Origin: Paraburkholderia sp. | GTDB lineage: Bacteria; Pseudomonadota; Gammaproteobacteria; Burkholderiales; Burkholderiaceae | Length of the DNA stretch: 64,000 bases | NCBI RefSeq assembly: GCF_049581445.1 | Contig: NZ_JBAURZ010000343.1 | Span: 39-64,038 of the forward strand | Direction: 5' to 3' | Shown: in pieces, positions 11,088 through 42,458 of the stretch | Numbering within the stretch: the stretch's first letter is position 1 | How the letters are laid out: every line of letters begins with the position of its first letter | Notes under the pieces: generated by a model | What the model saw: the letters and a program-made list of their open reading frames with translations, nothing else | What the model was told of the DNA's origin: nothing | Databases searched by the model: none | Translations under genes and position numbers: made by a program

Positions 11088-11138
11088 TTGCCTTGCTTCA
11101 TCGCCGAAACCATCCCTCTTTGCAGGCGGACGCCGAGT

Positions 11139-22938: not shown

Positions 22939-25900
22939 GATTCGAATCTCCGGAAATCGCGGCGGTCGCAGGGGGACCCCGGTGCGAATGGAATATGCAA
23001 AAGACGGCCGGCACGAGGAACAGCGTGGCGGTCGTGGCGAACATCAGGCCGCCAATCACCGCACGGCCTAGTGGCGCGTTCTGTTCGCCGCCTTCGCCGA
23101 GTGCGAGTGCCATCGGCGACATGCCGATAATCATCGAGAGAGCCGTCATCAGAACGGGGCGGAAACGGCTCGAACCGGCTTCCAGTGCTGCCTTGAACGC
23201 GTCGCCGTGTTCGGCCAGACGTTCGCGGCAAAAGCTCACCACGAGAATGGAATTGGCTGTTGCAACGCCCATGCACATGATGGCGCCGGTCAACGCGGGA
23301 ACCGACAGCGTGGTGTGTGTCGCGAACAGCATCCACACGATGCCGGCCAGCGCGCCAGGCAAAGCAGAGACGATCACCAGCGGATCAGTCCACGACTGGA
23401 AGTTGATGACGATCAGCAGATAAATCAGCACCACTGCGCCGAGCAGGCCAAAGAGCAGACCGCTGAAGGCGTTGTTCATGGTCTGCACCTGGCCGCGCAG
23501 GACAACCCTCGCGCCCTTCGGCAAACTGTGGGCGTTCACGGCCACGATCTGACGGATGTCAGCGGAAACGCCACCCAGATCGCGCCCCTGGGTCGTGGCG
23601 AAGATCTCGACCATCGGTTGAACGTCGTAGTCGCTGACGACTTCGTTGCTGACGGTGCGATGGATACTGGCCACGCCCGAGAGGATCTGTCCGCTGTTTT
23701 CCGTGGTGCCCCCGCTCAGGGGCAGATTCTTCAGGGCCGGCAGCGTATCGAGACCGTATTGCGGCGTCTGCACCACAATTGGATATTCAACGCCATTGGC
23801 CGGATTGAGCCAGTAGGTCGGGGCGATCTGACCGGATCCCGCCAGGTGTACGACCAGGCTATTGGTGACATCGCGTTCGGTGATTCCCTGAAGCTCCGCA
23901 TGGATACGGTCGACGTCGACATTGAATTGCGGACTCTCTTGCGATTGCTCGATGCGGGCGTCGACCACGCCGGGAACATGCCGGATCTGACGCAACATCA
24001 GGTTGGCGTAGGCAAAGTCGGCCGGCAAACTCCTGCCACGAATCTGCAGGTCAATCGGTGCAGGCGAGCCGAAGTTCAGGATCTGTCCCACGATGTCCGC
24101 AGGCGGGAACGAGAACGTGACGCCGGGAAACTCGCGCGGCAACTGCTCGCGTAACTTGCGAACGTAATCCGCTGTGGGGTGATGGTTTTCGTTCAGCGAG
24201 ATCTGGATATCGCCGTCTTGCGGACCAATCGTTCCGGTGTTGTTGTAGGCGGTATTGATGGAGCTGGTCGAAAGTCCCATGTTGTCGACCACGGTCCCCA
24301 ACTCGGATCGCGGAATCGTCGCCCGCACGCCGCCTTCCACGTCCGCGAAGACTTCAGCCGTTCTCTCGATACGCGTACCGATCGGCGCACGGACGTGCAG
24401 CAGAATCTGGCCGGCGTCGACATCGGGGAAGAAGTTGCGCCCGAGAAACGGCACTAGTGCGAACGACAGGACGACGAATCCGAAGAACCCGATGACAAAA
24501 ACTCGCCGATGATTCAACAGTAGCTCGAGTATCCCGCTGTAGTTCGAGCGGATGCGCTCGAAACCGCGCTCGAAGCTGCGTTGAAACCGCACCAGTGGGT
24601 TCGTAGAAACGGGACGTGCGTGCTCGTGTTCCTGTCCCTGGTCCCCGTGCTGTTCCTGAGCGTGGGGCTTCAGCAGGTACTTGGCCATCGTGGGCACGAG
24701 GGTCCGTGACAGGATGAACGATGAGATCATCGCGAAGATCACCGCTTCGGCCATCGGCACGAACAGGAATCCCGCCACGCCGCCCAGGAAGAACATCGGC
24801 ACAAACACGATACAGATACAAAGCAGCGAGACAAATGCCGGTGTGACGATCTGTGCGGCACCGTCGAGAATGGCGGGTTCGACTTCCTTGCCTTGCTCCA
24901 GGTGCCAGTTGATGTTCTCTATGGTCACTGTCGCGTCGTCGACGAGAATCCCCACCGCCAGCGCGAGCCCCCCGAGGGTCATGATGTTCAGCGTCTCTCC
25001 CAGGGCAGAGAGGATTGAAATCGACCCCAGAATCGCGAGCGGAATGGACGTCGCGATGATGACGGTTGAGCGCCAACTGCCAAGAAACAGCAGGATCATC
25101 ACGCTCGTCAGCAGCGCGGCGATTACACCCTCACGGGCGACGCCTGAAATGGCTGAGCGAACGAACAAAGACTGGTCACCAATCGGATCGATCCGAAGGT
25201 TATCTGGCAGCGAGGCTTTGGCGTCGATCGCCTTCTGCCTGATCCCGGCGATGATGGACAGGGTCGATGCCGAACCATTCTTGAACACGGTGAGCAGCAC
25301 CGAACGCTTGCCCTCCACGTGAACAATGTTCGGTTGCGGCGGAGCACCGTCGATCACATCGGCGACATCGCGCAGATAGACGGTGGTGCCGTTGGCTGAT
25401 TTGACGGGCATATTGGCAATCGCGGCGATCGTCGACGGTGCGTCATTCAGTTGCACCGTGTACTCATAGTTGCCGATCTTTTCGGTACCAACAGGCGTGA
25501 TCAGATTCTGTGACGCTAACGCGTTCTCGACGTCCTCGGCAGACAGTCCGCGAGACTCGAGTGCAGACGGTTTAACGTTGAGCTGAACCTGGCGGGTTTT
25601 GCCACCGAATGGGAAAGGGATCGCGGCCCCGGCTACCGACGTCAACATTGGGCGTAGCAGATTCAGGCCCAGATCGGCCAGATTCTGCTCGGAGAGGCCC
25701 TTTCCAGAAAGCGCGAGCTGGATGACAGGCACCGTCGAGGCGTTGTAATTGAGAATAAATGGCGGCGTCTCGCCCGGTGGCAGCTGTTTCAGGATTTCCT
25801 GTGAAATCGCTGTGACCTGCGCATTCGCCGTGCCGATATTGGTGCCCGGCTGGAAGAAGATCTTGACGACGCCATAGCCGTTAAGCGAGGTGCCTTCGAT

Positions 25901-26143
25901 GTGTTCGACGCTGTTGACCGTGGTGGTCAACACGCGCTGGAACGGCGCCATGATGCGCCCTTCCATCTGGTCGGGTGAAAGACCCGTGTATTGCCACACC
26001 ACGCTAACAACGGGGATATCGATACTTGGAAAGATATCCGTAGGGGTACGAAGCGCGGACAGCGGTCCGACGATAAGAATAAAGATGGCCAGTACGACGA
26101 AGGTATAAGGACTCTTTAGCGCAATGCGCACGATCGCAATCAT
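22928..26143 (-). CDS. RND efflux transporter permease subunit, system 2 (paralog of 5307..8501)
   Basis: 1071 aa and colinear with system 1 (roughly 60% identical by eye). Motif 'GGLALAVGILVDDATVTIE'. Confidence 0.9.
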   Translation of the reverse strand: MIAIVRIALKSPYTFVVLAIFILIVGPLSALRTPTDIFPSIDIPVVSVVWQYTGLSPDQMEGRIMAPFQRVLTTTVNSVEHIEGTSLNGYGVVKIFFQPGTNIGTANAQVTAISQEILKQLPPGETPPFILNYNASTVPVIQLALSGKGLSEQNLADLGLNLLRPMLTSVAGAAIPFPFGGKTRQVQLNVKPSALESRGLSAEDVENALASQNLITPVGTEKIGNYEYTVQLNDAPSTIAAIANMPVKSANGTTVYLRDVADVIDGAPPQPNIVHVEGKRSVLLTVFKNGSASTLSIIAGIRQKAIDAKASLPDNLRIDPIGDQSLFVRSAISGVAREGVIAALLTSVMILLFLGSWRSTVIIATSIPLAILGSISILSALGETLNIMTLGGLALAVGILVDDATVTIENINWHLEQGKEVEPAILDGAAQIVTPAFVSLLCICIVFVPMFFLGGVAGFLFVPMAEAVIFAMISSFILSRTLVPTMAKYLLKPHAQEQHGDQGQEHEHARPVSTNPLVRFQRSFERGFERIRSNYSGILELLLNHRRVFVIGFFGFVVLSFALVPFLGRNFFPDVDAGQILLHVRAPIGTRIERTAEVFADVEGGVRATIPRSELGTVVDNMGLSTSSINTAYNNTGTIGPQDGDIQISLNENHHPTADYVRKLREQLPREFPGVTFSFPPADIVGQILNFGSPAPIDLQIRGRSLPADFAYANLMLRQIRHVPGVVDARIEQSQESPQFNVDVDRIHAELQGITERDVTNSLVVHLAGSGQIAPTYWLNPANGVEYPIVVQTPQYGLDTLPALKNLPLSGGTTENSGQILSGVASIHRTVSNEVVSDYDVQPMVEIFATTQGRDLGGVSADIRQIVAVNAHSLPKGARVVLRGQVQTMNNAFSGLLFGLLGAVVLIYLLIVINFQSWTDPLVIVSALPGALAGIVWMLFATHTTLSVPALTGAIMCMGVATANSILVVSFCRERLAEHGDAFKAALEAGSSRFRPVLMTALSMIIGMSPMALALGEGGEQNAPLGRAVIGGLMFATTATLFLVPAVFCIFHSHRGPPATAAISGDSNHVV

Positions 26144-26220: not shown

Positions 26221-27489
26221 TCAATCTGGGTCCGGTGAGATGACGCTCGCCTTGTGTGGCGCGTCGGGATGCGGAGTGTGCGCTGCTCTTGTACTGCCAG
26301 GAGCGCCGATCCAGTGGATGGCAGAAGCGACGAGCCCGAGCGTGATACCGAACGCGACGATGCCCGTCCAGCCGAAGCGCGACATCAGCCAGCCACTGAT
26401 GACGGTGCCGATGGCCCCGCCGAAGAAGGTGGCAGTCATATAGAGGCTGTTGATGCGGCCCTGCGCTTTATGATCGACCGCGAAGGCGCGCGTCTGGTTG
26501 GATACCAAGCCGGCCTGCACGCCGATATCCAGCACAATGACGCCGATCACGAGGAACGCGAGCGAAGAGTTCGCGCCGGCGAGAATCAGGTAGGCAAGCG
26601 TCACGATGCCGATACTGATTCCAATGACATGGCGGGTGCCGTGCCGGTCGGAGTAATGGCCTCCGAGTGATGCGGCAAACGCGCCAGCCGCACCGATGAT
26701 GCCGAAGCCGCCTGCCCATGCGCTGCCAAGGTGCCATGGTCCGGTCACAAGGAGCGCCGCCAGATTGACCCAGAAGGCGTTGAAACAGGCCCACAACAAC
26801 GCCTGGATCATCATGGATTCACGAATCGGGCGATGCTGCCGCGCCAGTGGCCAGAGCGAAGCGAGCAGGCGTCCGTAGGAGAGATCCGTGCTCGGCACAC
26901 CTTGCGGCAGGAGCGAAGCGGCGGCGATAAAGACCGGCACCATGAACACCGCTTCGAGCCCGTACACGGCGCGCCAGCCAAAAGTCGCGCCGACCACGCC
27001 CGCAATCGTGCGGCCGACCAGAATGCCGACCATAATGCCGCTGACGACTGTCCCGACATTACGCCCGCGCTGATGGGGGGGCGACATGACGGCCGCGAAG
27101 GGCACGAGTTGCTGTGGCACGCAACTGACGATGCCAAGACCAAAGGAGGCCGCGATCAGCGCCCAGATGCCGGGTGAGACCGCTGCCGCGATAGCGAACA
27201 CGAAGGCGAGTGCGATCTGCGCGAGCACGAGTTTGCGGCGGTCGAAGCGGTCGCCAAGCGGCAACAGCAACGCGAGCCCGGTCGAGAAGCCAAGCAGCGC
27301 CGCGGCGGCGACGAGATCGACCATCGCGAGGTCGACCCCCAAGCCCGCTTTGATCAGCGGCAGGATCGGCTGGGTGCAATAGATGTTGGTGATCACCGCG
27401 CCGGCGATGATTGCCATCATGACGATCTTGCCACGCGATGCTACCGCGTGCGTAGGTGGACTAACCGGTGCGCTGGGTCGGCCGTGCAT
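26221..27489 (-). CDS. MFS transporter
   Basis: 422 aa with 12 predicted hydrophobic helices. MFS loop motif 'LGDRFDRRK'. Confidence 0.8.
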   Translation of the reverse strand: MHGRPSAPVSPPTHAVASRGKIVMMAIIAGAVITNIYCTQPILPLIKAGLGVDLAMVDLVAAAALLGFSTGLALLLPLGDRFDRRKLVLAQIALAFVFAIAAAVSPGIWALIAASFGLGIVSCVPQQLVPFAAVMSPPHQRGRNVGTVVSGIMVGILVGRTIAGVVGATFGWRAVYGLEAVFMVPVFIAAASLLPQGVPSTDLSYGRLLASLWPLARQHRPIRESMMIQALLWACFNAFWVNLAALLVTGPWHLGSAWAGGFGIIGAAGAFAASLGGHYSDRHGTRHVIGISIGIVTLAYLILAGANSSLAFLVIGVIVLDIGVQAGLVSNQTRAFAVDHKAQGRINSLYMTATFFGGAIGTVISGWLMSRFGWTGIVAFGITLGLVASAIHWIGAPGSTRAAHTPHPDAPHKASVISPDPD

Positions 27490-27516: not shown

Positions 27517-28026
27517 TCAGCTCGCTTCCGCCTTAACTTCTTTCAGTTCCCCGTTTGCGAGATTCAGAACAAAGCCGCGGATGACGATATCTGACGGCAC
27601 CCACGGATGAGAGCGAAGCTTCAACATCTGCTTTTTCGTGGCTTCATTGACGTCCGTATAGAAGTGGAACACTGCGGGCGTCACAGCCAGCGAGCCAGTG
27701 CGTTCGTGCAGATGCGTCTCAAACGTGCCGTCCGTAAACATCTCCATCCCACATCCCGTGTGCCCAACAATCATGATTTCCGTCACGCCCAGAACGTGAA
27801 TCGAAAACATGAGTGATCGCACAACATCTTCGGTAACGACTGTTCCAACATTCCGAATTACGTCCGCGTCGGCGGGTTTGATATCGAATCGTTCTAACAG
27901 CCCATTCATACGTGGGTCCATGCACGTGATGATCGCAACCTTTGGGGCCGGCTTTCCCGCCAGCGATGCATCATGATGCTTTGCACTTGCTTGACTTGAA
28001 GTGATTGCGTGTTCGATCAGACTCAT
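27517..28026 (-). CDS. Beta-class carbonic anhydrase-like protein
   Basis: 169 aa. Zinc ligand motifs CxDxR ('ITCMDPR') and HxxC ('GHTGCGM'). Confidence 0.75.
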   Translation of the reverse strand: MSLIEHAITSSQASAKHHDASLAGKPAPKVAIITCMDPRMNGLLERFDIKPADADVIRNVGTVVTEDVVRSLMFSIHVLGVTEIMIVGHTGCGMEMFTDGTFETHLHERTGSLAVTPAVFHFYTDVNEATKKQMLKLRSHPWVPSDIVIRGFVLNLANGELKEVKAEAS

Positions 28027-30034: not shown

Positions 30035-30268
30035 GAGGCGAGCCGGCAGGTCTGGCTTGCGAAAGAGCGTTTGTGCGATTGCGCACAGTCGAAAAAATAC
30101 GTGAACAACTAGCCTAGGTGGTCGGAAATCGACACGGGGGTGCTTCATGGATTCCGCGATTCAGGTTCCGATCACTTGAAGGAATTTCAGGAAGTCCGTC
30201 AAAAAAGCAAAGACTCCGCCGCGCGATCGGACCTGATCGATACGCGCGCTCGCTATAGGGAGCTTTAG

Positions 30269-33200
30269 ATGGATGTCCTTCGCCTGCTCGACAGCGGGCG
30301 CCAGTCAGGTGAGACTGGCGCGCGATTACCAATTTATGACTGCGCGCCTGAGCGCATCGCCGCGTCGCAAATGACTGCGTTCACCGTGGCGCTCGAGGCG
30401 CATACGGGTCGCGTCTTTGCAGACTACGCGGCATTGCACGATTTCTCTGTGCGAGAGTACCGAACGTTCTGGCGATGCTTCGTGCAGTGGGCACGGGGGC
30501 TCGATTGGTCTGGGGATGCTGAGCCTGTCTGTGTCGGCGACGACTGCGAGCATGCGCGCTTCTTTCCGCATCTCGAACTGAACTATGCGAATGACGTGCT
30601 CAGTTTATCCGTGGCTGGGGCCGACGCACCAGCCGTGATCGGATGTTACGCTGACGGCCGACGCGCGCGCCTGACCCGTGGCGAACTGCGCGAGCGGGTG
30701 GCGCGTCTTGCGCATGCGCTGTCGGAGCTGGGACTTAATGAGGGCGATCGGGTCGTCGGCGTGATGCGCAACGACACGGACGCCATTGTGGCCGCGCTGG
30801 CTGTTGCCGCGATAGGCGCTACGCTGTCGACCGCAGCGCCCGAGATGGGCGTCGAGACAATCGTCGACCGCTTTGCGCCACTCGCACCGCGCCTGCTGTT
30901 TGCGCACGCGGCGACGCGGGCTTTCGATACAGGCGCTCCGTTAGCGGGCAACGTTGCCGCTCTGGCGGCGGCCTTACCCTCGGTGCAGGGCATCGTCTGT
31001 CTTGACGAAGGACACTTGCCGGACACCATCAAACAGCCGGTCTATTCCCTCGACGCGTTGATCGACGGCGGCGACGCCGGGCGCTTCGCATGGCGTCGTT
31101 TCCCATTCAGCCATCCGCTTTTCGTCATGTTCTCGTCGGGCACGACTGGCAAGCCGAAGTGCATCGTGCACGGCGCCGGCGGCACATTGATCGAGCACCT
31201 GAAGGAGCATCGCCTTCACTGCGACCTGCGGCCGGGCGATCGGATGTACTTTCACACCAGTTGCTCATGGATGATGTGGAACTGGCAACTGTCCGCGCTC
31301 GCGTCTGGCGTCGAGATTGTGACCTACGACGGTCCGATTTCCTCGGTCGACACGTTGTGGCGTTTAGTGGCGGACGAGCGCGTGACTGTATTCGGCACGA
31401 GCCCCGCTTATCTGAAGATGTGCGAAGAGACGGGTCTGATCCCCGGCAATCAATTTGATCTCAGCGCACTGCGCGCAATGTTTTCGACCGGCGCTGTGCT
31501 GTTCGACTCGCAGTTCGAGTGGGTGCGTGACCATGTCAAACCGCTACCGTTGCAGTCGATCTCCGGGGGCACTGACATACTTGGTTGCTTCGTGCTGGGG
31601 AATCCGAACTTGCCGGTCTACGCGGGCGAAGCGCAGTGCAGGAGCCTCGCGCTCGATGTTCAGTCATGGACGGGCGGGACTCGCGCGGACGGCATCGGTC
31701 AACTGGTCTGCGTCAATTCTTTTCCGTCCCGTCCGATCGGTTTTTTTGGTGATGCCGACGGCGCCGCGTTTCACGCCGCCTATTTCGCGGCCAACCCTGG
31801 TGCCTGGACCCATGGCGATCTCATCGAGTTTTCGGCACAAGGCTCTGCACGGCTGCATGGCCGGTCCGATGGCGTACTTAATGTGCGTGGTATCAACGTG
31901 GGACCGGGCGAGATCTACCGAGTCCTGAACGACATACCGGGTATCCGCGAAGCAATGGTGGTCGAACAGCGATCGCGCGAAACGCCGACCGAAAATCCAT
32001 CCACACATGGGGAGCGATTCGACACGCGCGTGGTATTGCTCGTGGTCTTGCAAGAGGGAGTTGCGTTGAGCAGCGCACTGGTTGCTCAAGTGCGCCGTGA
32101 CCTCGCGCGCCGTGCGTCGGCGGCGCATGTGCCGGACCGGATCATCGCAGTCGATGCGCTACCGGCGACGCACAACGGCAAACTGTCCGAAGCGGCAGCG
32201 CGCAACGCGGTCAACGGGCTACCTGTCTTCAATACGGCGGCGTTGCGTAACCCCGAGTGTCTCGACGCAATTCGCAACCACCCTGCGTTAAATTATGCGG
32301 CCCGTGAGTTGCCGCCAGCGGGCGGGTCGCGCCAACAACTCGAACAGCATTTGCAGGCGCAATGGGAGAATCTGCTAGGGTTCGGGCCGATATCCCGGGA
32401 CGACAATTTCTTCGAGTTGGGCGGACATTCACTGCTCGGAGTCCGGTTGCTGAGCGACCTCTCCGCTTTGACCAGACGGACGATTCCGCTTGCTACGCTG
32501 CTGACTGCGTCGACGATTGCACGCCTCGCTGAAGTGATCGACGGGAGCGCGCTGCCGGCATCCTCGCCGATCCTCGTGCCGGTACGCAGCGGTATCGGCA
32601 ACCCGCTATTTTTGATGCACAGCTTGAGCGGATCGGTGATGGAGTGCTGGGCGCTGGTTGCCGCGCTGCGTACTTCGCGCCCGGTGTATGGGCTGCAGGC
32701 ACTCGGCCTCGACGGTGATGAGCCGGTGCAGCAGCGCGTGGAGGACATGGCTCGTGGATATATCGAACAGATGCGCAGCGTCCAACCGAGCGGGCCGTAC
32801 GCGTTGGCTGGCTATTCGTTCGGTGGGCTGGTTGCGCTGGAGGTAGCGCAGCAGCTTTTAGTTGCCGGCGAGCAAGTGGAGGTTCTGTGTCTGCTTGACA
32901 CTTACGTCAATGAGCGCTGTTTGCCGTTGAGTGCGTGGATTCGCTATCAATGTCGCTACATGGCAGGACATGGGCGCGCGCTGCGCGAACTGCCCGCGTC
33001 ACAACGTCTGCGCTATTTGACGACGAAGTTCGTGGGCGCGGTCGATCGCGTGCGGATGCGTGCCGGGCGTCTTGCGCTGCGGCCGGATCCCAATACCGAG
33101 GGAATGCCGCCGACGTTGCGTCGCGTGCGCGCGGCACTGCGCGCAGCGATGACTGCCTATCGGCCACTGCCTTATCGCGCGGGGCCCATCGTTTATTTGC

Positions 33201-33370
33201 GAGCGGTCATCCCGGAGCGAGAACTTGGTGACCCGCTTCCACTATGGAAACGGGTGGCCCGCGCGGGGTTGATAGTCGTCCAGGTGCCTGGTGGCCATCC
33301 CGATATGATCACCGAACCGAACGTACTTACCGTTGCAGCCGCACTCGACCATGCGTTGGCGCAAGTCTGA
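30269..33370 (+). CDS. NRPS-like tridomain enzyme: acetoacetyl-CoA-synthetase-type adenylation domain + carrier (T) domain + type-I thioesterase
   Basis: 1033 aa. AacS-like N-terminus: 'ERIAASQMTAFTVALEAHTG..DYAALHDFSVREYRTFW'. Adenylation motifs: 'FSSGTTGKPKCIVH', 'SCSWMMWNW', 'SGGTDI', 'GRSDGVLNVRGINVGPGEIY', 'PATHNGKLSE'. Carrier domain: 'FFELGGHSLLGVRL'. TE domain: 'GYSFGG' ... 'GGHPDM'. Confidence 0.85.
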   Translation: MDVLRLLDSGRQSGETGARLPIYDCAPERIAASQMTAFTVALEAHTGRVFADYAALHDFSVREYRTFWRCFVQWARGLDWSGDAEPVCVGDDCEHARFFPHLELNYANDVLSLSVAGADAPAVIGCYADGRRARLTRGELRERVARLAHALSELGLNEGDRVVGVMRNDTDAIVAALAVAAIGATLSTAAPEMGVETIVDRFAPLAPRLLFAHAATRAFDTGAPLAGNVAALAAALPSVQGIVCLDEGHLPDTIKQPVYSLDALIDGGDAGRFAWRRFPFSHPLFVMFSSGTTGKPKCIVHGAGGTLIEHLKEHRLHCDLRPGDRMYFHTSCSWMMWNWQLSALASGVEIVTYDGPISSVDTLWRLVADERVTVFGTSPAYLKMCEETGLIPGNQFDLSALRAMFSTGAVLFDSQFEWVRDHVKPLPLQSISGGTDILGCFVLGNPNLPVYAGEAQCRSLALDVQSWTGGTRADGIGQLVCVNSFPSRPIGFFGDADGAAFHAAYFAANPGAWTHGDLIEFSAQGSARLHGRSDGVLNVRGINVGPGEIYRVLNDIPGIREAMVVEQRSRETPTENPSTHGERFDTRVVLLVVLQEGVALSSALVAQVRRDLARRASAAHVPDRIIAVDALPATHNGKLSEAAARNAVNGLPVFNTAALRNPECLDAIRNHPALNYAARELPPAGGSRQQLEQHLQAQWENLLGFGPISRDDNFFELGGHSLLGVRLLSDLSALTRRTIPLATLLTASTIARLAEVIDGSALPASSPILVPVRSGIGNPLFLMHSLSGSVMECWALVAALRTSRPVYGLQALGLDGDEPVQQRVEDMARGYIEQMRSVQPSGPYALAGYSFGGLVALEVAQQLLVAGEQVEVLCLLDTYVNERCLPLSAWIRYQCRYMAGHGRALRELPASQRLRYLTTKFVGAVDRVRMRAGRLALRPDPNTEGMPPTLRRVRAALRAAMTAYRPLPYRAGPIVYLRAVIPERELGDPLPLWKRVARAGLIVVQVPGGHPDMITEPNVLTVAAALDHALAQV

Positions 33371-33415
33371 CATCGATGGCAAGTATGCCTGAATATTTAT
33401 TGCGGACTAGATGGC

Positions 33416-34201
33416 ATGTGGCACGATCCCGTCACTATGGAAAACGCGCGACGTATCGAGTGTTGTTCGCTATCGAATGCGTGCGGCCTGTCATTGACCA
33501 AGGATACGGTCCACGTGTGGGTGCTCAACGATTCGGATGTCGGCCAGGCAAGCGCGACGTTCGTCCAGACACTTTCACCGGATGAACGAAAGCGGGCGCA
33601 CGCCTGCAAGCGGGCAAGAGATCGCGATCGAGTCATCGCCCGGCGAGGCATGCTCCGCACGTTGCTCGGATACTACCTCGACTGCCGGCCGGAATGCCTG
33701 AGCTTCGGCGTTGCCGATTTCGGCAAGCCGTTCTTGCAACGCGAGGGCGCTGCACAGCTTGCCTTCAACGTTTCCCAGAGTGACGGGATTGCGCTGCTCG
33801 CTTTTGCGTGGAATTGCCATATCGGCGTAGACGTCGAGCGGCCGGTCGGTGGCTTCGACGTCGCCGGCGTGGCCAGTCAGATTTTTTCTTCAACGGAACT
33901 GAAAACGCTCGAGGCCAACCGCTCCGTTTCGGTCGATACGTTCTTTTCGATCTGGGTCCGGAAGGAAGCGCTGTTAAAAGCGCTAGGCACCGGTCTATAC
34001 AGCGGTGATCTAACGGCCTACACCACGGAAGACGATTCGCGACTGGGCGGTGGCCACTGGCGCGCTTTATATAACCGCACAGTCGTAACGTCAGGATGGA
34101 CGTGCGTCGACTTTGACCTCCGTCCGCAGGCGCGAGGCGCGCTGGCCGTGTCGCTTGACGGTGTACAGGTCTCGCTCTACGTCTGCTCGTTTGCGCCTTA
34201 A
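33416..34201 (+). CDS. Sfp-type 4'-phosphopantetheinyl transferase
   Basis: 261 aa. Motifs: 'FGKPFL', 'FNVSQSDG', 'IGVDVE', 'FSIWVRKEALLKALGTG'. It lies 46 nt downstream of the A-T-TE gene. Confidence 0.85.
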   Translation: MWHDPVTMENARRIECCSLSNACGLSLTKDTVHVWVLNDSDVGQASATFVQTLSPDERKRAHACKRARDRDRVIARRGMLRTLLGYYLDCRPECLSFGVADFGKPFLQREGAAQLAFNVSQSDGIALLAFAWNCHIGVDVERPVGGFDVAGVASQIFSSTELKTLEANRSVSVDTFFSIWVRKEALLKALGTGLYSGDLTAYTTEDDSRLGGGHWRALYNRTVVTSGWTCVDFDLRPQARGALAVSLDGVQVSLYVCSFAP

Positions 34202-34263
34202 CAGGTTGCTGATATACGACCGCGCAGGAACGGCTTACCGCCATCCGCGCGACTGACGTCGCC

Positions 34264-34750
34264 TCAACATTCGGTACGCGCGAATGCCGAAACAAGATAT
34301 TCGATGAACACCTTCACTCGCTTCGGCACTCGACGGCCCGCCGGATAGACAAGATGAATGGGAACGCGCTCGGGTTGCAAATCGGGTAGTAGCACTTGGG
34401 CCTGGCCGGAATGGATCTCTTCCGCCATTAGCCAGTACGGCGCCTGAGCAATGCCAAGGCCGCAAAGCACAGCCGCGCGAATATGCTCTGCATCACCGGT
34501 CAACAGCGAGCCGTGCGGCACATAGGAGACTGCATCCTTCCCGACCCTGAGTGACCAGGGGTAGCGCTCTCGCCCTTTCGCGAAGACGATACAGGTGTGC
34601 TTGTCGAGGTCCGCAAGCCGGCCCGGTACACCCTTCGCTGCAACATAGCCGGGGCTCGCCACGAGCAAAAAATCTGTCTCAGAGAGCTTCCTTGCCGTCA
34701 GCGAGGAATCGATCAATCGCCCGTGGCGAACCGCCAGATCAAAGCATTCT
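34264..34750 (-). pseudogene. LysR-family regulator lacking its N-terminal HTH domain
   Basis: Only the effector-binding half remains: 'DLAVRHGRLIDSSLTARKL..PIHLVYPAGRRVPKRVKVFIEYL'. The upstream part is replaced by the 3' end of the cytochrome b561 gene. Confidence 0.6.
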
Positions 34751-35263: not shown

Positions 35264-35673
35264 CAACTGACGTGCAATGCGCTCGTCAAGGCAATCGCTC
35301 TGAATGATAGCGGCTTGCGCCTCCCCAGTGCCGATTCGGCTATGTGATGCCGTTTGCGGCATCTGGTTCATATGCACGTTCACGTCCAAGCCTGTTAAGC
35401 GGATTCGATGCGCCGGTGTGCGCCACACATTGCTGGTTGTTCGGCGAGGCCGTTACGCGCTCAACGCGTGCCGCGCCAACGGTCCGACGAGTGTCAGATC
35501 GTATCCATGTGGCGTTCATTGGTCAATAGAAATGCAAATAACAATCATCCGCATTTACATTTGACTTGCACTCGCTTCAGGTGGACTGCCGCGATTCCTT
35601 GCCGGCTACCAAAAAAGGGGATTTGGGCCCGCGCTCGGGGCGTCTCCTACATGGGGCGCAGGCGATCACCTGC

Positions 35674-36123
35674 CTACAGCAGGGATTTGCCTTGGGCGAG
35701 AATCTTGTCGCAGACCTGCTTCGTGACCTGCTCCTTCAAACCGCCGCCGCTCAGGTCAACCTGCTTACCGTCACCGCTAGTCAGGATCCCCTTGGCACCA
35801 CTGGTGTACCCGCTGTCGCTCGACGAGGAACCGCCCGGTAGTTTGCTCATCAGGCCGTCCTTGACCGACGATGCATCGCCGCCGAGATAGTTGTTCTTGA
35901 TGCAGTATTGGAGTACGCCAGCAACGTTGCCGGTACTGCTGGAGGTTAGCGACTGCGCCGACAATCCGCTGCCTAAACCGCCGAGGCTGCTAAGTCCGCC
36001 AGCGGCACCGCTGTTTCCACTCTGATTGAGAAGGCTGCCGAGTTGGGCGTGGGCGGCGGGAACAGATAGCAGGGCAGCGATCAGGAACCCACTGGCCCAG
36101 GTGCGACGTTTGCATGCGGTCAT
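35674..36123 (-). CDS. Secreted DUF2501-like protein
   Basis: 149 aa. Signal peptide, Gly/Ser-rich linker, and 'GNVAGVLQYCIKNNYLGG..QVCDKIL'. Confidence 0.65.
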   Translation of the reverse strand: MTACKRRTWASGFLIAALLSVPAAHAQLGSLLNQSGNSGAAGGLSSLGGLGSGLSAQSLTSSSTGNVAGVLQYCIKNNYLGGDASSVKDGLMSKLPGGSSSSDSGYTSGAKGILTSGDGKQVDLSGGGLKEQVTKQVCDKILAQGKSLL

Positions 36124-36564
36124 GGAAGACTCCTTTCCTCGAAGTGGAGGCTGTCTTCACTATAGTGCCTTTCGGACTTGCCAAGGTCCTGATTCCAGGG
36201 TGGCCGCAGGCGCCGGAAAATTCCAGACTGGAACGATCGTTCCAGTCGCGTGGGATCCAGTTGATCCATATTGAGTCGACTATGAAAGTTTGTCGACGAA
36301 GGGCTGGAGTCCCGCCTAGACCAGAATGCGTCTTTACGACTAACATAGTCCGCGCTTGCCGGAGTTGGGTGAGAAGGGCGCCGCTTTCAGGCATGGTCGA
36401 AATGTGACACGTGGACGTAAAACCTGCGCCTGGGATGAACATGAATGAGCCAGCCAAATGAACACTAGCTCTCTGTTCGACAAACCACCACTCGATCCGC
36501 CCGATCCGCCCCACGGCAGGCCTCAAACTACGCTGGCTGATATCACCCTTCGGATGGTCCAGCC

Positions 36565-37473
36565 ATGGCCGTGTTGCGCACTGTACTCAAATACGCCAAC
36601 GGCGTGATTTTCGTCTCCTCAATGGTCGAGGCTCTGATACTTGCCGTAAGACGCAGCTCGCGCGGCTACGACTGGAAGGCAGCGGGTGTGTCGGTGACGG
36701 ACTTTCTCGTTCGTGAATATCCGTTGCGCTGGTTGCTGCCACTGGCCTTCTGGAGTGACGCAATGAACTGGTTCTGGCAGCACAGGCTCTGGACGTTGCC
36801 GATGAACCATTGGAGTGGTTGGCTGACGTGCTTCGTGGGCCAGTAATTCTGCTACTACTGGTATCACCGCGCGGCCCATCGGACACGTTGGTTCTGGTGC
36901 ACCCATGCTGTTCACCATTCACCTGATCAACTCAATCTTTGCGCCGCGTATCGGATTGGCTGGACTGACCGTCTTACTGGCTCGACGCTGTTTTTCGTAC
37001 TCGCGCCGCTATTCGGCATGCCACCCCAGATCGTGCTGATGCTACTTTCGCTGAACCTGCTCTATCAATTCTGGCTACACGTAACGTGGATTCCACGCCT
37101 CGGGCCGCTTGAATGGCTCTTCAACACGCCTTCCGCACACCGCGTGCATCATGCGTCCAACCTCGAGTACCTGGATGGAAACTATGGCGGTGTGCTGATC
37201 GTGTTTGATCGACTATTCAACACCTATATCGCGGAGCGGCGCGGTCTGCCATGCCGCTATGGTCTGGTGCGGCCGGTGACGACCTATAACCTGCTCAAGA
37301 TCGAGTTCGACCAATGGCGTGCGCTATGGCGCGATCTACTGTCCGCGCGTTCCATACGTGCGGTATTTAGCTACGTAGTCAAGCCGCCCGGCTGGCGGCC
37401 CGATAATCAAGGGGATACGACAGAAGATCTAAGACGTCGCGCAGATTCACGCTCCTTTGGCGCTGGACGGTAA
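36565..37473 (+). pseudogene. Sterol desaturase / fatty-acid hydroxylase family gene with one in-frame TAA
   Basis: ORFs 36565..36846 and 37018..37473 are in the same frame. The TAA at 36844..36846 interrupts '..CFVGQ*FCYYWYHRAAHR'. His boxes 'HRAAH', 'HAVHH' and 'HRVHH' are intact downstream. Confidence 0.7.
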
Positions 37474-37812
37474 CAGGTTCGCCCTGGGCGCAATGATCGG
37501 ATGTAACGATGATTGCAGGCCACGTTGCAGCGCAGCGAAAGTGCCAACATCGAAGCAGCGATCTTTGCGCGGCCGAGGCAATGGGAAAGCCCGCTATCTT
37601 CAGCTTGAAAGCGAATTTTTTCGCCACGGCGGATTGGTTCTGTTTGCATGATAGCCACGGTGAACGGTTCATTTTGTTCTACTCTATAAGCGCGACGCAC
37701 AGTGGTTCCCGGTGTTTGTCCAGCGTCGCGGCTATAGGGAAATGCTTGTGAATTCGCCGCGCCCGTAGATCGTTTTCCCGACCTTGGCGCGCTGACCTCA
37801 TGGAGGATGAAG

Positions 37813-38466
37813 ATGTCAATTCGATTAGGAGAAGAAGCACCGGATTTCACGGCTGAAACCACCGAAGGAACGATCCGATTTCACGAATGGATTGGCGACC
37901 ATTGGGCAATTCTGTTCTCGCATCCAAAGGACTTCACGCCGGTTTGCACGACTGAGCTCGGATACATGGCAGGGCTGAAGCCGGAATTCGATAAGCGCAA
38001 CACGAAGGTCATCGGGCTTAGCGTGGATCCTGTCAGCGACCACCAGAAGTGGCTGAAGGATATTGAAGAGACGCAGGGACACGCGGTCAACTACCCGCTG
38101 ATCGGCGACGCGGACCTGAGTGTCGCGAAGCTCTACGACATGATTCATCCGAACGCAAGCGGCGGCACGCGCACTGCGGTGGACAACGCGACGGTACGCT
38201 CCGTGTTTCTTATCGGACCGGACAAGAAGGTCAAAGCGATGCTCGTCTATCCGATGAGCGCAGGCCGCAATTTCGACGAAGTGATGCGTCTGCTAGATTC
38301 GCTGCAGCTGAACGCTAAACACACGGTGGCGACGCCTGTGAACTGGAAGCCAGGCGAAGACGTTATCATTCCGACGTCCGTTACCAATGACCAGGCGATG
38401 CAGAAGTATCCTCAGGGTTTCAAAACCTTGAAGCCCTACCTGCGGTACGTGGCGCAACCGAGATGA
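37813..38466 (+). CDS. 1-Cys peroxiredoxin (Prx6 type)
   Basis: 'MSIRLGEEAPDF..WAILFSHPKDFTPVCTTELG'. Start set at ATG 37813 (GGAGG 6 nt upstream). Confidence 0.9.
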   Translation: MSIRLGEEAPDFTAETTEGTIRFHEWIGDHWAILFSHPKDFTPVCTTELGYMAGLKPEFDKRNTKVIGLSVDPVSDHQKWLKDIEETQGHAVNYPLIGDADLSVAKLYDMIHPNASGGTRTAVDNATVRSVFLIGPDKKVKAMLVYPMSAGRNFDEVMRLLDSLQLNAKHTVATPVNWKPGEDVIIPTSVTNDQAMQKYPQGFKTLKPYLRYVAQPR

Positions 38467-38575
38467 GGTTCTAGTTGACGGAAAGCGCGCGCACCGGGAA
38501 TTTCGCAACTCGGTGCTCGCGGCGGGTCCGTCAGCATCATAAAAGGCTCGTAGATGCGGGCCATGGAGACAGACC

Positions 38576-39649
38576 GTGCTGATCTTCCGGCAACTATTCG
38601 ACCAGCAATCGTCCACGTACACGTATCTTCTTGCCGATGGGGCAACAGGAGAGGCAGTGCTGATCGATCCGGTTTTCGAGCAGGTGCGCCGGGACACCGC
38701 GTTGATCGAAGAGCTGCAATTGCGCCTGCTTTATACAATCGACACACATGTCCATGCCGATCACGTGACTGGCGCGTGGATGCACAAACAGCGCGCAGGC
38801 AGTCAGATTGCGATATCGGCCGCGAGCGGCGCCGAAGGCGCAGACCGCTATCTGACCCATGGCGACTTTTGTCCGTTCGGCGCGCGATATCTGTCCGTGC
38901 GCGCAACACCTGGTCATACAAGTGGATGCATTTGCCTGGTACTTGATGACGAGAGCATGGCGTTTACCGGCGATTGCCTGTTGATCAGAGGCACTGGCCG
39001 GACGGATTTCCAGCACGGTGACCCGCACGCAATGTTCCGGGCGATCCACCATCAGATTTTCACTTTGCCCGAAACATGCCTGCTTTATCCGGCGCACGAC
39101 TACCGCGGTTTGACTGTCACGAGTGTCGGCGAGGAGCGGCGCTTCAATCCGCGCCTCGGTGGTGAACTGTGCGAAGACGATTTCACCGGATACATGACGA
39201 ACCTGGGCCTGCCGCATCCGAAGCAGATCGACATCGCGGTACCGGCCAACCTCAAATGCGGCTTCGCCGCGTGTGACCCCTCGCGGATGGCTGAGCCGAG
39301 TTGGGCGCCACTGTCCTACACTTTTGCGGGCATCTGGGAAATCAATGCTCAATGGCTGGAAGAAAATCTGCGCGCTGTCCAGATTGTCGACGTTCGCGAG
39401 CCTGACGAGTTCAACGGGCCGCTGGGGCGGATTCCGGAGGCCAGACTCATTTCACTCGGCGAGTTGGCCCAGCGCGCCGGTGAACTCGGGCAAGATCGCC
39501 CGATCGTGACGGTCTGCCGTGCCGGCGGACGTTCAGCGCAAGCCACGGCCATACTGCGGCGGTCGGGATTCGAGGCGGTTGCTAATCTCGCCGGCGGTAT
39601 GCTCCGCTGGCGTGCAGAAGGACGCGTTGTCGAAAACGGGAGCGTTTAA
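38576..39649 (+). CDS. Persulfide dioxygenase (ETHE1-like MBL fold) fused to a rhodanese domain
   Basis: 357 aa, GTG start. Metal motif 'THVHADHVTG'. C-terminal rhodanese active site 'VCRAGGRS'. Confidence 0.85.
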   Translation: MLIFRQLFDQQSSTYTYLLADGATGEAVLIDPVFEQVRRDTALIEELQLRLLYTIDTHVHADHVTGAWMHKQRAGSQIAISAASGAEGADRYLTHGDFCPFGARYLSVRATPGHTSGCICLVLDDESMAFTGDCLLIRGTGRTDFQHGDPHAMFRAIHHQIFTLPETCLLYPAHDYRGLTVTSVGEERRFNPRLGGELCEDDFTGYMTNLGLPHPKQIDIAVPANLKCGFAACDPSRMAEPSWAPLSYTFAGIWEINAQWLEENLRAVQIVDVREPDEFNGPLGRIPEARLISLGELAQRAGELGQDRPIVTVCRAGGRSAQATAILRRSGFEAVANLAGGMLRWRAEGRVVENGSV

Positions 39650-39800
39650 GCCGCTCACCCGATTCGCAAAGATCCTCGACTTCGTCCAATCAGATCAGCT
39701 GCCGTCCGTAAAATTTGGGGCCGGCACGACGGAAAATTTTCCCGCACGGCGTGAGCATCAGCGCACTGAGCACAGTCATTAAATGCGACTCGTGTAAACT

Positions 39801-40460
39801 GTGCCGATGTCCTCACACATCGATTACCTCAACCCCGCTCTTCCTTCCGGTCTCCGGCGCGTGCCGATGCCCGTGGTCGACGCAACCCCAACTACGCTCG
39901 AAGGCTTTGGCCGGCTTGTAGCGGATCCGAGCGAGTGCCCGATTGAGATCGTGCGGTGGCCGGCGGTGGGATCAAGACCCATCGACCCTGACACCGGTGA
40001 TCAGGCAGGCACGACGGAAGGCATCTTCGTCAGCGAATGGCGCGGCGACATTCTCTATGGTCGAAACGAGGCCGTGGGCGGTCACTACGTCCTGGCGTAT
40101 GCAACGGAGCCTGACGCGGCCCGTGACGACAACGCCAATGCCCCAGAACGCATGTTGCTTTGGCATGCGAACTACCACCCCGACGGCGGACAACTGTTCT
40201 TCCCTCTCGACCATCGTCCCTTCTACATTCCGTTGGCGTTGCCGGGAGACGACATTACGCCAGAGAAGTTCGTGTGTTTTCGCTTCGATGGACGGCAGGG
40301 TCTCTACATCCATCCGAGCATCTGGCATGAAGGCGTGTTCACGCTTGAAGGAACACAGCGCTTCTTTGACAAGCAGGGCGCTGTCCACGCGCGCGTGTCC
40401 GTCGAGTTTGCGCGCGAGTTTGGTTGTCTGCTCGAGGCACCGATTCTCGGCGACGCTTGA
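39801..40460 (+). CDS. Ureidoglycolate lyase (AllA)-family-like protein
   Basis: 219 aa. 'ANYHPDGGQLFFPL..GLYIHPSIWHEGVF' resembles the AllA 'ERHPLGTQAFIP..NYHRNVWHHPLF' core (from memory). Confidence 0.5.
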   Translation: MPMSSHIDYLNPALPSGLRRVPMPVVDATPTTLEGFGRLVADPSECPIEIVRWPAVGSRPIDPDTGDQAGTTEGIFVSEWRGDILYGRNEAVGGHYVLAYATEPDAARDDNANAPERMLLWHANYHPDGGQLFFPLDHRPFYIPLALPGDDITPEKFVCFRFDGRQGLYIHPSIWHEGVFTLEGTQRFFDKQGAVHARVSVEFAREFGCLLEAPILGDA

Positions 40461-40659
40461 CCTGTTTTAGTGGCGCTCGACTCGCCGTTACTCGCGCTCG
40501 GTTTCGAGCGCCGCGTCGGCGCACGCCAGAAAACCTTTGATCAGGTGGCGCGTATGGCGAAACTGGTTTCAGCAAGGCGATGGTTCGGACCGCTATGTGC
40601 CGGGCGAGCCTTTCGAGAGCAACGACTACCGGCGACGACCATCACAATTCGAGTTTGAT

Positions 40660-41269
40660 ATGCAAAGCATGACAGCGACCCCGCAGGGTGAGTCTCGCAA
40701 TGGGCAGGCGGCGCCGGTCCGGTTCGGAATCGTGCTGCTTCCCAACTTCACCTTGACGGCCTTCTCCGGATTCGTCGACGTGCTGCGCCTCGCCAGTGAC
40801 GAAGGCGACCTTAGCCGGCCGGTTCGTTGCGCGTGGAGCATCATCGGCGAATTGCTTACGCCAGTCCGTGCAAGCTGCGGTATCCAGGTCACGCCGAAAC
40901 GCGCCTCAACCTCACCCACCTGGCCTTCGGCCCGCCACGCATCCAAAAGTAAAGCGAGCGATCTTGCTGATGGAGCAACACATCGGGCAGCCGTTAAGCT
41001 TGAGCGAGCTTGCACATCGCCTGGAAATGTCTGTTCGACAACTTGAACGCTTGTTCAGCAGCGAAATGGAGACTGCGCCGCTGACCTATGCCCGGCAGCT
41101 TCGTCTGCGTACCGCTGCCTGGTTGCTGACGAGTTCTGACCGCACCGTTACCGAAATCGCATCTTCATGTGGCTTCGCAGACGCATCGCATCTAGGTCGG
41201 GAATTCAAGAAGGAATACGGAGAAGCGCCAAACGCCTTTCGCATGCATGGTGCGCAGCTCGCGCAATAG
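40660..41269 (+). pseudogene. GlxA-type (DJ-1/PfpI + AraC HTH) regulator with internal deletion and frameshift
   Basis: The N-terminus 'VRFGIVLLPNFTLTAFSGFVDVLRLA' (frame of 40537) joins directly, in another frame, to the HTH half 'HPKVKRAILLMEQHIGQPLSLSELAHRL..SHLGREFKKEYGEAP'. About 130 aa of the DJ-1 domain are missing. Confidence 0.6.
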
Positions 41270-41456
41270 GTCACGGATACGTCGGTTACTACCTCGCAAT
41301 CGTTTGCCACCAGGCGGTTCACGGCGAAAGACCACGCACCATGCATGCATCGACGCGATGGCGACGAACGATCGTTAAAGCCCCCGTAAAATACGCCGAT
41401 AACCCGGTTAGCCGTTCGCTTACATAACCCACAATTCAGAATAAAAGGTAGCGCGC

Positions 41457-42458
41457 ATGAGCGGGTTCACTCCATTCGCTGATTCGGACATAAACGCAGG
41501 CCGTTCTCCCCGCGATGTACGGGTCCGCAAAGGGAAACAGACGACGACGATCAGTGTGCCCTGCAGTGTCGGCGGTTCAGTCTGCTTCATGCGCCCCGGC
41601 CCCGATGGTCAGGGTTCGCGTTTCGTCGCGGCGTTTCGACTCGTGCCACCTGAAAAAATTAGTGACGACGTTGTCGTGTTTGGGATCGACGGTTCGACAC
41701 TCAATGGGCTCAGGCGTGACGAGGAATTTATTGACGCTGTCCGCCCGTTGCTTAAGTCGGGATCGCGCGTCTCGCTGGGAAAGAATTGGCTTTCCATCAC
41801 TGTCGGCAATGCGAAAGCGCGTGATTCGAAAGATGAAATTTGCCGCTATTTGACGGTGGTGGCCACGCGACTCGAGTCCCTCATCGGTGCGAGCGCGAAC
41901 GAGTCGGCCAACATCGGTCAGCTGTCCTTACCCTACGTTGTGCTTTCGTACGCCTCAGGAATCGCTTTGGGCTTGGGGTTCGCATTTTCGAGGCAATCGC
42001 TGATGCCGTTGCGAATTGCCGAGTGCGCCTTGGCGCTGACTTTGGTGCTGGCGTGTTTGATGTTGCTGCTTGTCATTCCTATTCACCTGCGCAAGCAGGC
42101 GCTCGGTGGCCCGGTTGCATCAACCGTCGTCGGCGCGGCAGTGATGGGTTCGATTTGCCTCGGCTCCGCAAGCGCGCTTATTGCGAACACTTACGTTGGA
42201 GAACGGTTTTTGCAGCCGGAGGGGTTGACGGCGTCGGGCATCATTGTCATCACGCGCGGGAAACATACCAGTTGCACACTCGTTCTTGACGAACCATCGG
42301 CGCGGATTGTGGCTGGCACATACGTTGGGCGGCTGCCAATTGCGTGCAGCGATGTCCATTATCGCGAGAACCTGCATTCGCGCTCCTATTACATTGATAT
42401 CAATCCTGGCCTTTTCGGTGCACGTTTCGTGCAAGCGATCCGTACCACAGATAATTGA
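41457..42458 (+). CDS. Hypothetical membrane protein
   Basis: 333 aa. A soluble N-terminal ~165 aa, three or four hydrophobic helices, and a ~90-aa C-terminal domain. No recognisable motif. Confidence 0.55.
   Translation: MSGFTPFADSDINAGRSPRDVRVRKGKQTTTISVPCSVGGSVCFMRPGPDGQGSRFVAAFRLVPPEKISDDVVVFGIDGSTLNGLRRDEEFIDAVRPLLKSGSRVSLGKNWLSITVGNAKARDSKDEICRYLTVVATRLESLIGASANESANIGQLSLPYVVLSYASGIALGLGFAFSRQSLMPLRIAECALALTLVLACLMLLLVIPIHLRKQALGGPVASTVVGAAVMGSICLGSASALIANTYVGERFLQPEGLTASGIIVITRGKHTSCTLVLDEPSARIVAGTYVGRLPIACSDVHYRENLHSRSYYIDINPGLFGARFVQAIRTTDN

Follow-up and report, generated by a model that had tools for sequence, protein, structure and literature searches.

A two-gene cassette of Paraburkholderia couples an acetoacetyl-CoA synthetase-type adenylation domain to carrier and thioesterase domains: a candidate unit of carrier-dependent acyl transfer

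What does a protein do that begins as a complete acetoacetyl-CoA synthetase (AacS) and ends in a carrier and a thioesterase (TE) domain? The question is raised by a cassette in a 64,000-nucleotide stretch of DNA from Paraburkholderia sp. (contig NZ_JBAURZ010000343.1, positions 39 to 64,038 of the forward strand; the whole stretch is hereafter called the window), where a 1033-aa fusion protein is encoded next to an Sfp-type 4′-phosphopantetheinyl transferase (PPTase). We consider it very likely that the domains have the functions of their families and that the enzyme loads its own carrier, and we regard as about evenly balanced the reading of the cassette as a self-contained unit of acyl activation and acyl transfer.

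The limits of the cassette were obtained by comparison with the homologous locus L081, with which the window shares in blastn a single 4204-bp match of 86.9% nucleotide identity (30055..34258), the flanks being unrelated. The block begins 214 bp 5′ of the start codon of the fusion gene and ends 57 bp past the stop codon of the PPTase gene, and the unit thus consists of the two genes with 214 bp upstream and 57 bp downstream. Its features are the following:

30055..34258, plus strand: two-gene cassette, delimited by the blastn homology block with L081
30257..30262, plus strand: ribosome-binding site AGGGAG before the start of the fusion gene
30269..33370, plus strand: gene of the AacS-carrier-TE fusion (AacS-T-TE), 1033 aa; longest open reading frame (ORF) at this position, with Pfam, NCBIfam and PDB matches
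30338..32287, plus strand: AacS-type adenylation (A) domain, residues 24-673 (NF002937, TIGR01217, 4WD1)
32351..32539, plus strand: carrier (thiolation, T) domain, residues 695-757 (Pfam PP-binding, 2.2e-9)
32429..32431, plus strand: codon of the phosphopantetheine site Ser721 in GGHSLL, invariant
32603..33322, plus strand: type-I TE domain, residues 779-1018 (Pfam Thioesterase, 2.1e-23)
32816..32818, 32897..32899 and 33296..33298, plus strand: codons of the TE triad Ser850 (GYSFGG), Asp877 and His1010 (GGHPDM), invariant
33416..34201, plus strand: Sfp-type PPTase, 261 aa (Pfam ACPS plus AASDHPPT_N)

The original prediction, made from the sequence alone, had described the first ~650 residues as a complete AacS homolog with its N-terminal domain and C-terminal tail, fused to a carrier domain and a type-I TE. 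The matches to NF002937, TIGR01217 and 4WD1 and the Pfam borders of the two C-terminal domains bear this out, Ser721 and the triad are in place, and every motif string that had been quoted occurs in the translation. As it had also stated, condensation (C), ketosynthase (KS), acyltransferase (AT) and reductase domains are absent from the 1033-aa protein in Pfam. The adjacent PPTase gene was correctly named as Sfp-type, with a spacing that had to be corrected from 46 to 45 nt (33371..33415). Measured against an 89%-identical homolog, dN/dS is 0.19 for the A domain, 0.16 for the carrier, 0.11 for the TE and 0.28 for the PPTase, which indicates that all parts of the cassette are maintained by purifying selection; furthermore, an identical protein followed by the same downstream genes is found on an independent public assembly.

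The A domain scores 651.5 bits against the NCBIfam acetoacetate--CoA ligase model NF002937 (cutoff 639; residues 24-673, profile positions 9-653 of 657) and 591.8 bits against TIGR01217 (cutoff 520.9), and its best solved structure is the Streptomyces lividans AacS 4WD1 (E = 4e-123, residues 21-657). The model for amino-acid adenylation by nonribosomal peptide synthetases (NRPS), TIGR01733, requires 317.4 bits and gave just 92.7; the best matches were AacS and Acs. With both AacS models above their cutoffs and TIGR01733 far below, the domain is of the AacS type and not of the NRPS type; the ordinary NRPS A domain that the original prediction had itself raised as a counter-possibility is not what the N-terminus carries.

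In order to compare the active sites, residues of Salmonella enterica Acs were mapped by means of PDB alignments and then tabulated position by position in 67 canonical AacS and 47 carrier-fused proteins. The pocket residues W334, M335, M336, W337, N338, T407, G408, S432 and G433 are those of canonical AacS, and the positions equivalent to Acs W309, V310, T311, V386, G387, W413 and W414 are identical between fused and canonical proteins. The tryptophan wall of Acs, which excludes larger acids (PMC11584562), is replaced by glycine in both. The A10 lysine (Lys638, in HNGKLSE) and the A8 Arg532 are also present. The retention of the AacS acyl pocket argues for acetoacetate or a near-isosteric C4 acid as the substrate, and a C4 beta-oxo or beta-hydroxy acid appears to us somewhat probable.

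The contact with the CoA nucleotide, in contrast to the acyl pocket, has been lost. The equivalent of Acs R584, which contacts the CoA 3′-phosphate, is arginine or lysine in 60 of 67 canonical AacS, arginine in 6 of 47 fused proteins, and alanine (Ala613) here. The fused clade also has a proline at position 546, where canonical AacS has threonine, and a valine or isoleucine at position 410 (Val410 here) for the canonical proline. In a neighbour-joining tree of 131 A domains with 40 bootstraps, all 47 carrier-fused domains split from canonical AacS, 4WD1 included, in 40/40 replicates. A carrier-loading model predicts these three features: a lost CoA contact, a carrier serine that does not vary and linkage to a PPTase gene. 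The proposal of the original prediction that the fused phosphopantetheine arm takes the place of CoA as acceptor gains indirect support from the separate clade, the missing arginine and the PPTase linkage, and CoA is probably not the acyl acceptor of the fused AacS.

These results bear directly on the conservative alternative that the protein is essentially still an acetoacetyl-CoA synthetase, with a T-TE tail that is regulatory or hydrolyses mis-acylated species. Both AacS models score it above their curated cutoffs, it retains the acyl pocket, the A10 lysine and most catalytic motifs, and ten stand-alone AacS-like proteins fall within the fused clade. This would leave unexplained, however, the loss of the arginine for the CoA 3′-phosphate, the purifying selection on an invariant carrier serine and TE triad, and the co-occurrence of a dedicated PPTase across four phyla; moreover, the alternative C-terminal acyltransferase domains described below would make no sense on a CoA ligase. 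We consider this alternative very improbable.

The closest structural relative of the PPTase is Sfp (1QR0, 5e-9), and by NCBIfam it is HetI-like. Its motifs IGVDVE and WVRKEALLK (WxxKEAxxK) align to 1QR0 and its two lobes correspond to ACPS plus AASDHPPT_N; Pfam, structure and catalytic motifs thus agree on the enzyme type that had been proposed for this gene. It is the sole neighbour that is conserved widely across the family, lying directly 3′ of the fusion gene in 10 homologous loci and adjacent to it in 20, across four phyla. The PPTase gene is downstream in the subclade of the window and upstream in Geodermatophilus, Acidisphaera, an alphaproteobacterial metagenome-assembled genome (MAG) and Glaciimonas, and it overlaps the gene of P0137, a variant described below. 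A copy on the Cupriavidus necator plasmid CP017759 (L085, 141177..164266) lies among transposases of the ISL3 and Tn3 types and a phage-type integrase, and has just an 88-aa ORF in the PPTase position, which indicates mobility of the gene and loss of the PPTase in some cases.

Ser721, Ser850, Asp877 and His1010 are conserved without exception in alignments of 19 and 32 homologs, so that neither the carrier serine nor any member of the TE triad, whose absence had been named as a possible objection, is missing. An AlphaFold model of residues 765-1033 (predicted local distance difference test, pLDDT, 91.8) shows a type-I TE with a long three-helix lid. In Foldseek the cyclising NRPS TE 7CRN came first, followed by AB3403, Pks13-TE, NocB and Vlm2, with template-modelling (TM) scores of 0.6-0.7; the values for Pks13-TE were E about 1e-17 to 1e-16 and TM 0.60-0.67, and a partial match to Pks13 was given by NCBIfam too. 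Pks13-TE moves its acyl chain onto trehalose, and is thus a TE that acts as a sugar acyltransferase. Judged by the model, the fold does not tell a hydrolase, a cyclase and a transferase apart.

A better clue came from the family. The enzyme had been called an orphan; its architecture stands as described, but it is not unique. At 90% identity, over 120 clusters share the architecture, and the best 120 of them are 61-99% identical to the query, 990-1080 aa long and composed of AMP-binding, PP-binding and Thioesterase domains, while an exhaustive search of 50%-identity representatives yielded ~35 full-length clusters. The family spans Burkholderiaceae, Alphaproteobacteria, Myxococcota and Actinobacteria, with members in species-representative genomes of Paraburkholderia, Caballeronia, Cupriavidus, Glaciimonas, Ramlibacter, Acidisphaera and Roseomonas, and in Myxococcales MAGs, Geodermatophilus and Pseudonocardia. 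Named members are all annotated as acetoacetate--CoA ligase or acetoacetyl-CoA synthetase. Neither a characterised member nor an assigned product was found in the literature searched, in keeping with the earlier statement that no characterised AacS-T-TE enzyme was known. In a plasmid database the gene had partial matches only, of 72-77% identity, on Cupriavidus, Paraburkholderia and Caballeronia replicons; these put the window in the Burkholderiaceae and carry no functional annotation. Several genomes hold two or three paralogs in differing contexts (L001 and L003 in Paraburkholderia panacisoli; L008, L010 and L043 in Paraburkholderia piptadeniae; L014 and L048 in Caballeronia glathei). By a simple pattern search L008 has no recognisable GxSxGG motif of the TE and L042 no carrier motif, and these two may be degenerate.

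Within the same A-domain clade the TE is exchanged for other domains. A hexapeptide-repeat acyltransferase domain (Hexapep) replaces it in P0137 and P0150 (AacS-T-Hexapep), the order is inverted in P0160 and P0167 (Hexapep-T-AacS), and a GNAT domain takes its place in P0141, P0155 and the Methylobacterium proteins L061, L062 and L068 (AacS-T-GNAT). In a Polyangiales MAG (JBBQXV010000302, locus L067, 127..6393) one ORF reads AacS-T-C-A-T-TE, a domain order in which an NRPS for one amino acid has the AacS-type domain as its loading module; it is predicted to make an N-acetoacetyl amino acid, from which a 3-acetyl-tetramic acid could arise by cyclisation. Hexapep, GNAT and C domains all move an acyl thioester to the nucleophile of a second substrate, and this is the best clue at hand that the TE also releases its acyl group by transfer. 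We place release by transfer to an acceptor slightly short of evenly balanced.

The genomic neighbourhoods suggested what the acceptor might be. A tblastn search placed one or more polysaccharide hallmark genes within 10 kb of the gene in 26 of 63 full-length loci, and two or more in 14 of the 63; at stand-alone AacS-like loci there were none (0 of 11; Fisher p = 0.006). A Pfam census of 131 neighbours at 14 loci outside the Burkholderiaceae was headed by Wzz, glycosyltransferase group 1 (GT1) and AAA_31. At the C. glathei locus L082 the neighbours are Wzc, a UDP-sugar dehydrogenase, an epimerase, a MurJ-type flippase, five glycosyltransferase GT4 genes and a polysaccharide deacetylase (Polysacc_deac_1). 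The Paraburkholderia locus L084, which belongs to the subclade of the window and has the PPTase, lies near genes for PGM/PMM, Wzx, GT2, GT4, an epimerase, GT1 and AT3, and the copy of Paraburkholderia humisilvae (L017) is surrounded by AT3, AT3-SGNH, two GT2 genes and Wzx. Furthermore, the Hexapep-T-AacS protein P0160 is encoded inside a Wza/Wzc/Wzx/Wzy/GT2 cluster. Formyl_trans_N genes near two Caballeronia paralogs were considered as partner acyltransferases and discarded, as they are not conserved; the Formyl_trans_N copy at L083 has genes of glycine-betaine catabolism as its neighbours and probably encodes PurU.

Both lines of evidence weigh on the main rival explanation, in which the TE makes a small molecule by self-condensation or oligomerisation, in the manner of the A-T-TE furanone and quinone synthetases. 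One acetoacetyl group on Ser850 and a second on the carrier thiol would undergo a Claisen-type condensation and lactonisation to a pyrone of the dehydroacetic-acid or triacetic-lactone type, and 3-hydroxybutyrate would yield linear or cyclic oligomers, as with the TEs of EntF and Vlm2. In its domain order the protein matches the known tridomain enzymes, the TE resembles the oligomerising and cyclising NRPS TEs 7CRN, EntF and Vlm2, beta-keto thioester chemistry would be facile, and no partner genes are needed in the window or its closest relatives, which fits a one-enzyme product made from a primary metabolite. At L081 the region 3′ of the cassette (4326..11366) encodes a FemAB-like Acetyltransf_6 protein, two methyltransferases, an esterase of the polyhydroxybutyrate (PHB)-depolymerase type and a BBE-type flavin oxidase, and looks like a secondary-metabolite cluster; these genes, however, are outside the homology block common to L081 and the window, and the window does not have them. 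The clade, by exchanging its TE for Hexapep, GNAT and C domains, points to transfer to a second substrate rather than to dimerisation, the repeated embedding in clusters of the Wzx/Wzy type is hard to square with a diffusible pyrone, and no such product from these genera was found in the literature searched. Small-molecule formation is therefore disfavoured and in our estimate unlikely, and the dimerisation or lactone chemistry that the original prediction had offered as speculation is, given the sister architectures and genomic contexts, less supported than acyl transfer.

Another explanation keeps the carrier loading and places the transfer elsewhere: the A-T part would supply starter units, passing acetoacetyl-S-carrier to a ketosynthase, a C domain or a membrane acyltransferase of the AT3/MBOAT type encoded in trans, and the TE would be an editing or unloading hydrolase only. 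L067 uses the same A-T unit as the loading module of a C-A-T-TE NRPS, genes for AT3 or AT3-SGNH acyltransferases adjoin the fusion gene in L015, L017 and L020, and DltA, DltC and DltB offer a precedent for such a division of labour. What one would not expect of mere editing is the TE itself, which is fused, of type I and not of the type-II editing kind, and, with an invariant triad, the most strongly constrained part of the cassette (dN/dS 0.11); in addition, no conserved trans partner was found in the clade of the window. We judge the supply of starter units to be improbable.

The preferred reading, activation followed by direct acyl transfer, would proceed in four steps. The Sfp-type PPTase would convert Ser721 of the carrier into the holo form. 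The AacS-derived domain, whose homology is clear, would then activate acetoacetate or possibly the near-isosteric 3-hydroxybutyrate, both of which are abundant in PHB-cycling bacteria such as these. The acyl group would be thioesterified onto the enzyme's own phosphopantetheine arm and not onto CoA, and it would finally pass to Ser850 of the TE and from there to another molecule, at a hydroxyl or amino group, the TE serving as an acyltransferase. Across the family this acceptor would most often be a cell-surface polysaccharide or its precursor, which would receive a C4 decoration (acetoacetyl or 3-hydroxybutanoyl) by a carrier-dependent route. For the copy in the window, a glycan acceptor is put forward only tentatively.

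Several observations weigh against this reading. The substrate, the loading and release by transfer rather than hydrolysis are all predicted from sequence. The A8-motif arginine equivalent to Acs R526 is present in 67 of 67 canonical AacS, and arginine or lysine is found in 41 of 47 fused proteins; in the Burkholderiaceae subclade of the window it is replaced by Asn543 (nt 31895..31897, RGINVGP). Since the neighbour-joining tree clusters ten stand-alone AacS-like proteins with the carrier-fused ones, membership of the clade alone is no proof of carrier loading, and family-specific hidden Markov models found no discrete carrier or TE genes beside the stand-alone AacS-like genes at L069-L080. 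The polysaccharide association covers 41% of the loci, many of which share synteny as related species do, and the control set is small. In the window's subclade (8 loci) the neighbours besides the PPTase are generic (MFS, LysR, ABC transporters), embedding among polysaccharide genes is seen only in the context of L005/L019/L084, and no polysaccharide genes were found in the 64-kb window. The generic neighbours and the C. necator copy between transposases indicate a mobile cassette that is often, as in the window, found by itself. A reductase that would provide the 3-hydroxybutanoyl form is neither fused to the protein nor conserved near it, and we know of no acetoacetylated glycan. Literature searches on the biosynthesis of 3-hydroxybutanoyl groups through carriers gave nothing usable.

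Should the reading hold, AacS-T-TE and its Hexapep and GNAT counterparts may form a widespread, hitherto unrecognised pathway in which free acetoacetate or 3-hydroxybutyrate from the PHB cycle is activated with ATP on a carrier and put directly onto surface glycans, with the TE as a glycan acyltransferase and a shared regulator of the CRP family. This broader proposal is possible and still doubtful; if true, it would account for the genes behind decorations of the 3-hydroxybutanoyl type and connect the metabolism of storage polymers with the chemistry of the cell surface. Since members of the family recur in exopolysaccharide and O-antigen clusters and have acyltransferase sister fusions, carrier-dependent C4 decoration of surface glycans is a testable hypothesis. 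As the cassette has only two genes, spans 4.2 kb and is self-priming, its expression and assay should be easy. Hundreds of genes annotated as acetoacetate--CoA ligase in at least four phyla almost certainly do not make acetoacetyl-CoA, and correcting this annotation matters for the metabolic reconstruction of ketone-body and PHB turnover in Burkholderiaceae.

The shared regulator is suggested by the 214 bp upstream of the fusion gene, which contain two elements:

30072..30087, palindromic: TGTGCGATTGCGCACA (TGTG-N8-CACA), candidate operator of the CRP/FNR family
30110..30115, plus strand: -10-like hexamer TAGCCT, 22 nt after the palindrome

Apart from the palindrome TGTGCGATTGCGCACA, the 64-kb window has no TGTG-N7-GCACA site. 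In 15 of 87 loci TGTG-N8-CACA, mostly in the form TGTGG-N5-TCGCACA, precedes the start codon by 150-200 nt, against an expected background of 0.008 per 400 nt, and these 15 loci come from three different context types. The hexamer, which reads gTAATCT in the other motif-bearing loci, keeps a conserved spacing of 21-22 nt. With the centre of the site ~29-30 nt before the hexamer, this geometry corresponds to that of a class II CRP/FNR-type promoter, and expression is probably controlled from such a candidate promoter by a CRP/FNR-family regulator binding at 30072..30087; the same geometry would put the transcription start ~7 nt past 30115. A Crp-family regulator gene lies directly upstream of the copy in L017. 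A generic scan found no sigma-70 consensus promoter, and three terminator-like sites were detected where 6.8 were expected, each of them either within a coding sequence or of no relevance. For Bcam1349, a CRP-family regulator of Burkholderia, the literature searched gave no usable binding box.

Outside the cassette, the following genes and fragments were recognised in the window:

20307..26143, minus strand: complete RND efflux operon (outer-membrane factor, HlyD-type adaptor, AcrB-type pump)
26221..27489: MFS transporter, after the RND operon
27517..28026, minus strand: beta-carbonic anhydrase fragment (profile 2-68 of 156)
34264..34716, minus strand: LysR-family fragment, 150 aa (profile 67-208 of 209; substrate-binding domain, no helix-turn-helix)
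37018..37473: C-terminal fragment of a fatty-acid hydroxylase (FA_hydroxylase)
39801..40460: partial ureidoglycolate-lyase match

None of the nearby genes qualified as a further member of the unit. The NUDIX gene, the binding protein, the carbonic anhydrase fragment, cytochrome b561 and the MFS transporter were beside 0 of 80 homologous loci and lie outside 30055-34258; the suggestion that the NUDIX and binding-protein genes might belong to the cassette is thus excluded by both conservation and the limits of the homology block. SBP_bac_11 proteins near two relatives are not homologous to the binding protein of the window, and the RND efflux operon is, by conservation, unrelated to the cassette. 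The carbonic anhydrase match is limited to less than half of its profile, which points to a probably truncated gene, and in 35400..45000 there are fragments of genes as well as ORFs that match no Pfam family (e.g., 333, 234 and 407 aa), so that the surroundings look like a decayed accessory region. A truncated LysR gene directly follows the PPTase gene, also on the independent assembly (L088), and may mark an old rearrangement beside the cassette. No direct or inverted repeats of the kind left by mobile elements stand out around it.

In such surroundings the cassette could itself be a decaying, non-functional remnant, as its truncated neighbours (LysR, carbonic anhydrase, FA_hydroxylase and ureidoglycolate-lyase fragments) and the C. 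necator plasmid copy, which sits between transposases with no intact PPTase gene, might suggest. Both reading frames, however, are intact, all catalytic residues are present, dN/dS against the 89%-identical homolog is 0.11-0.28, and the identical protein is found in the same context on the independent assembly; decay of the cassette is extremely improbable.

The cassette can be compared with several known systems. With AacS (EC 6.2.1.16, represented by SlAacS 4WD1) the fusion protein shares homology over the full length, N-terminal domain, C-terminal extension and acyl pocket included, whereas it differs by the fused carrier and TE domains, the distinct clade, the linked PPTase gene, and by Ala613 in place of the arginine equivalent to Acs R584 and Pro546, Val410 and Asn543 in place of threonine, proline and arginine, respectively. 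The known A-T-TE tridomain enzymes comprise the ralfuranone synthetase RalA, the terrequinone and atromentin synthetases TdiA and AtrA, and EchA. Like these, the fusion protein has an A-T-TE order with no C domain, a dependence on an Sfp-type PPTase and a type-I TE with a Ser-Asp-His triad; unlike them, it has an A domain that is not of the NRPS type and a predicted C4 beta-keto or beta-hydroxy substrate instead of an aryl pyruvate, its family is found in polysaccharide and not in pigment or antibiotic contexts, and dimerisation finds no support here.

Carrier-dependent acylation of glycans is known from D-alanylation by DltA/DltC/DltB/DltD, from the N-acylation of Nod factors by NodB/NodF/NodA, from the hexapeptide acyltransferases LpxA and LpxD, which use acyl-ACP, and from the tetronate side chain made by rfbK-O of Vibrio cholerae O1. 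The logic would be alike, in that an adenylating enzyme loads a phosphopantetheinyl carrier and a transferase passes the acyl group to a hydroxyl or amine of a sugar; sister proteins of the family carry fused hexapeptide or GNAT transferases, and some loci have Polysacc_deac_1 or AT3 genes. In the cassette, the steps would be fused in one cytoplasmic polypeptide, a TE would stand in for the transferase and the acyl group would be C4. The TE of Mycobacterium tuberculosis Pks13 ranks high among the structures that match the TE model; the sequence identity is 20-23%, the lid and the substrate differ, and the similarity is no greater than to 7CRN, AB3403 and NocB.

Finally, an acetoacetyl thioester on a carrier also serves as donor or starter in lyngbyapeptin B biosynthesis, where LynB1-KS and LynB2-ACP form acetoacetyl-ACP by decarboxylative condensation of acetyl and malonyl units (PMC10127204), whereas here free acetoacetate would be loaded directly at the expense of ATP. 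The parts of the cassette are all of known kinds, and what is new is the way they are combined, with a loading domain of the AacS type in a self-priming cassette that has a link to glycan clusters. Compared with the known route to acetoacetyl carriers, which uses ketosynthases, the family would represent the first AacS-type adenylation domain recruited for carrier loading.

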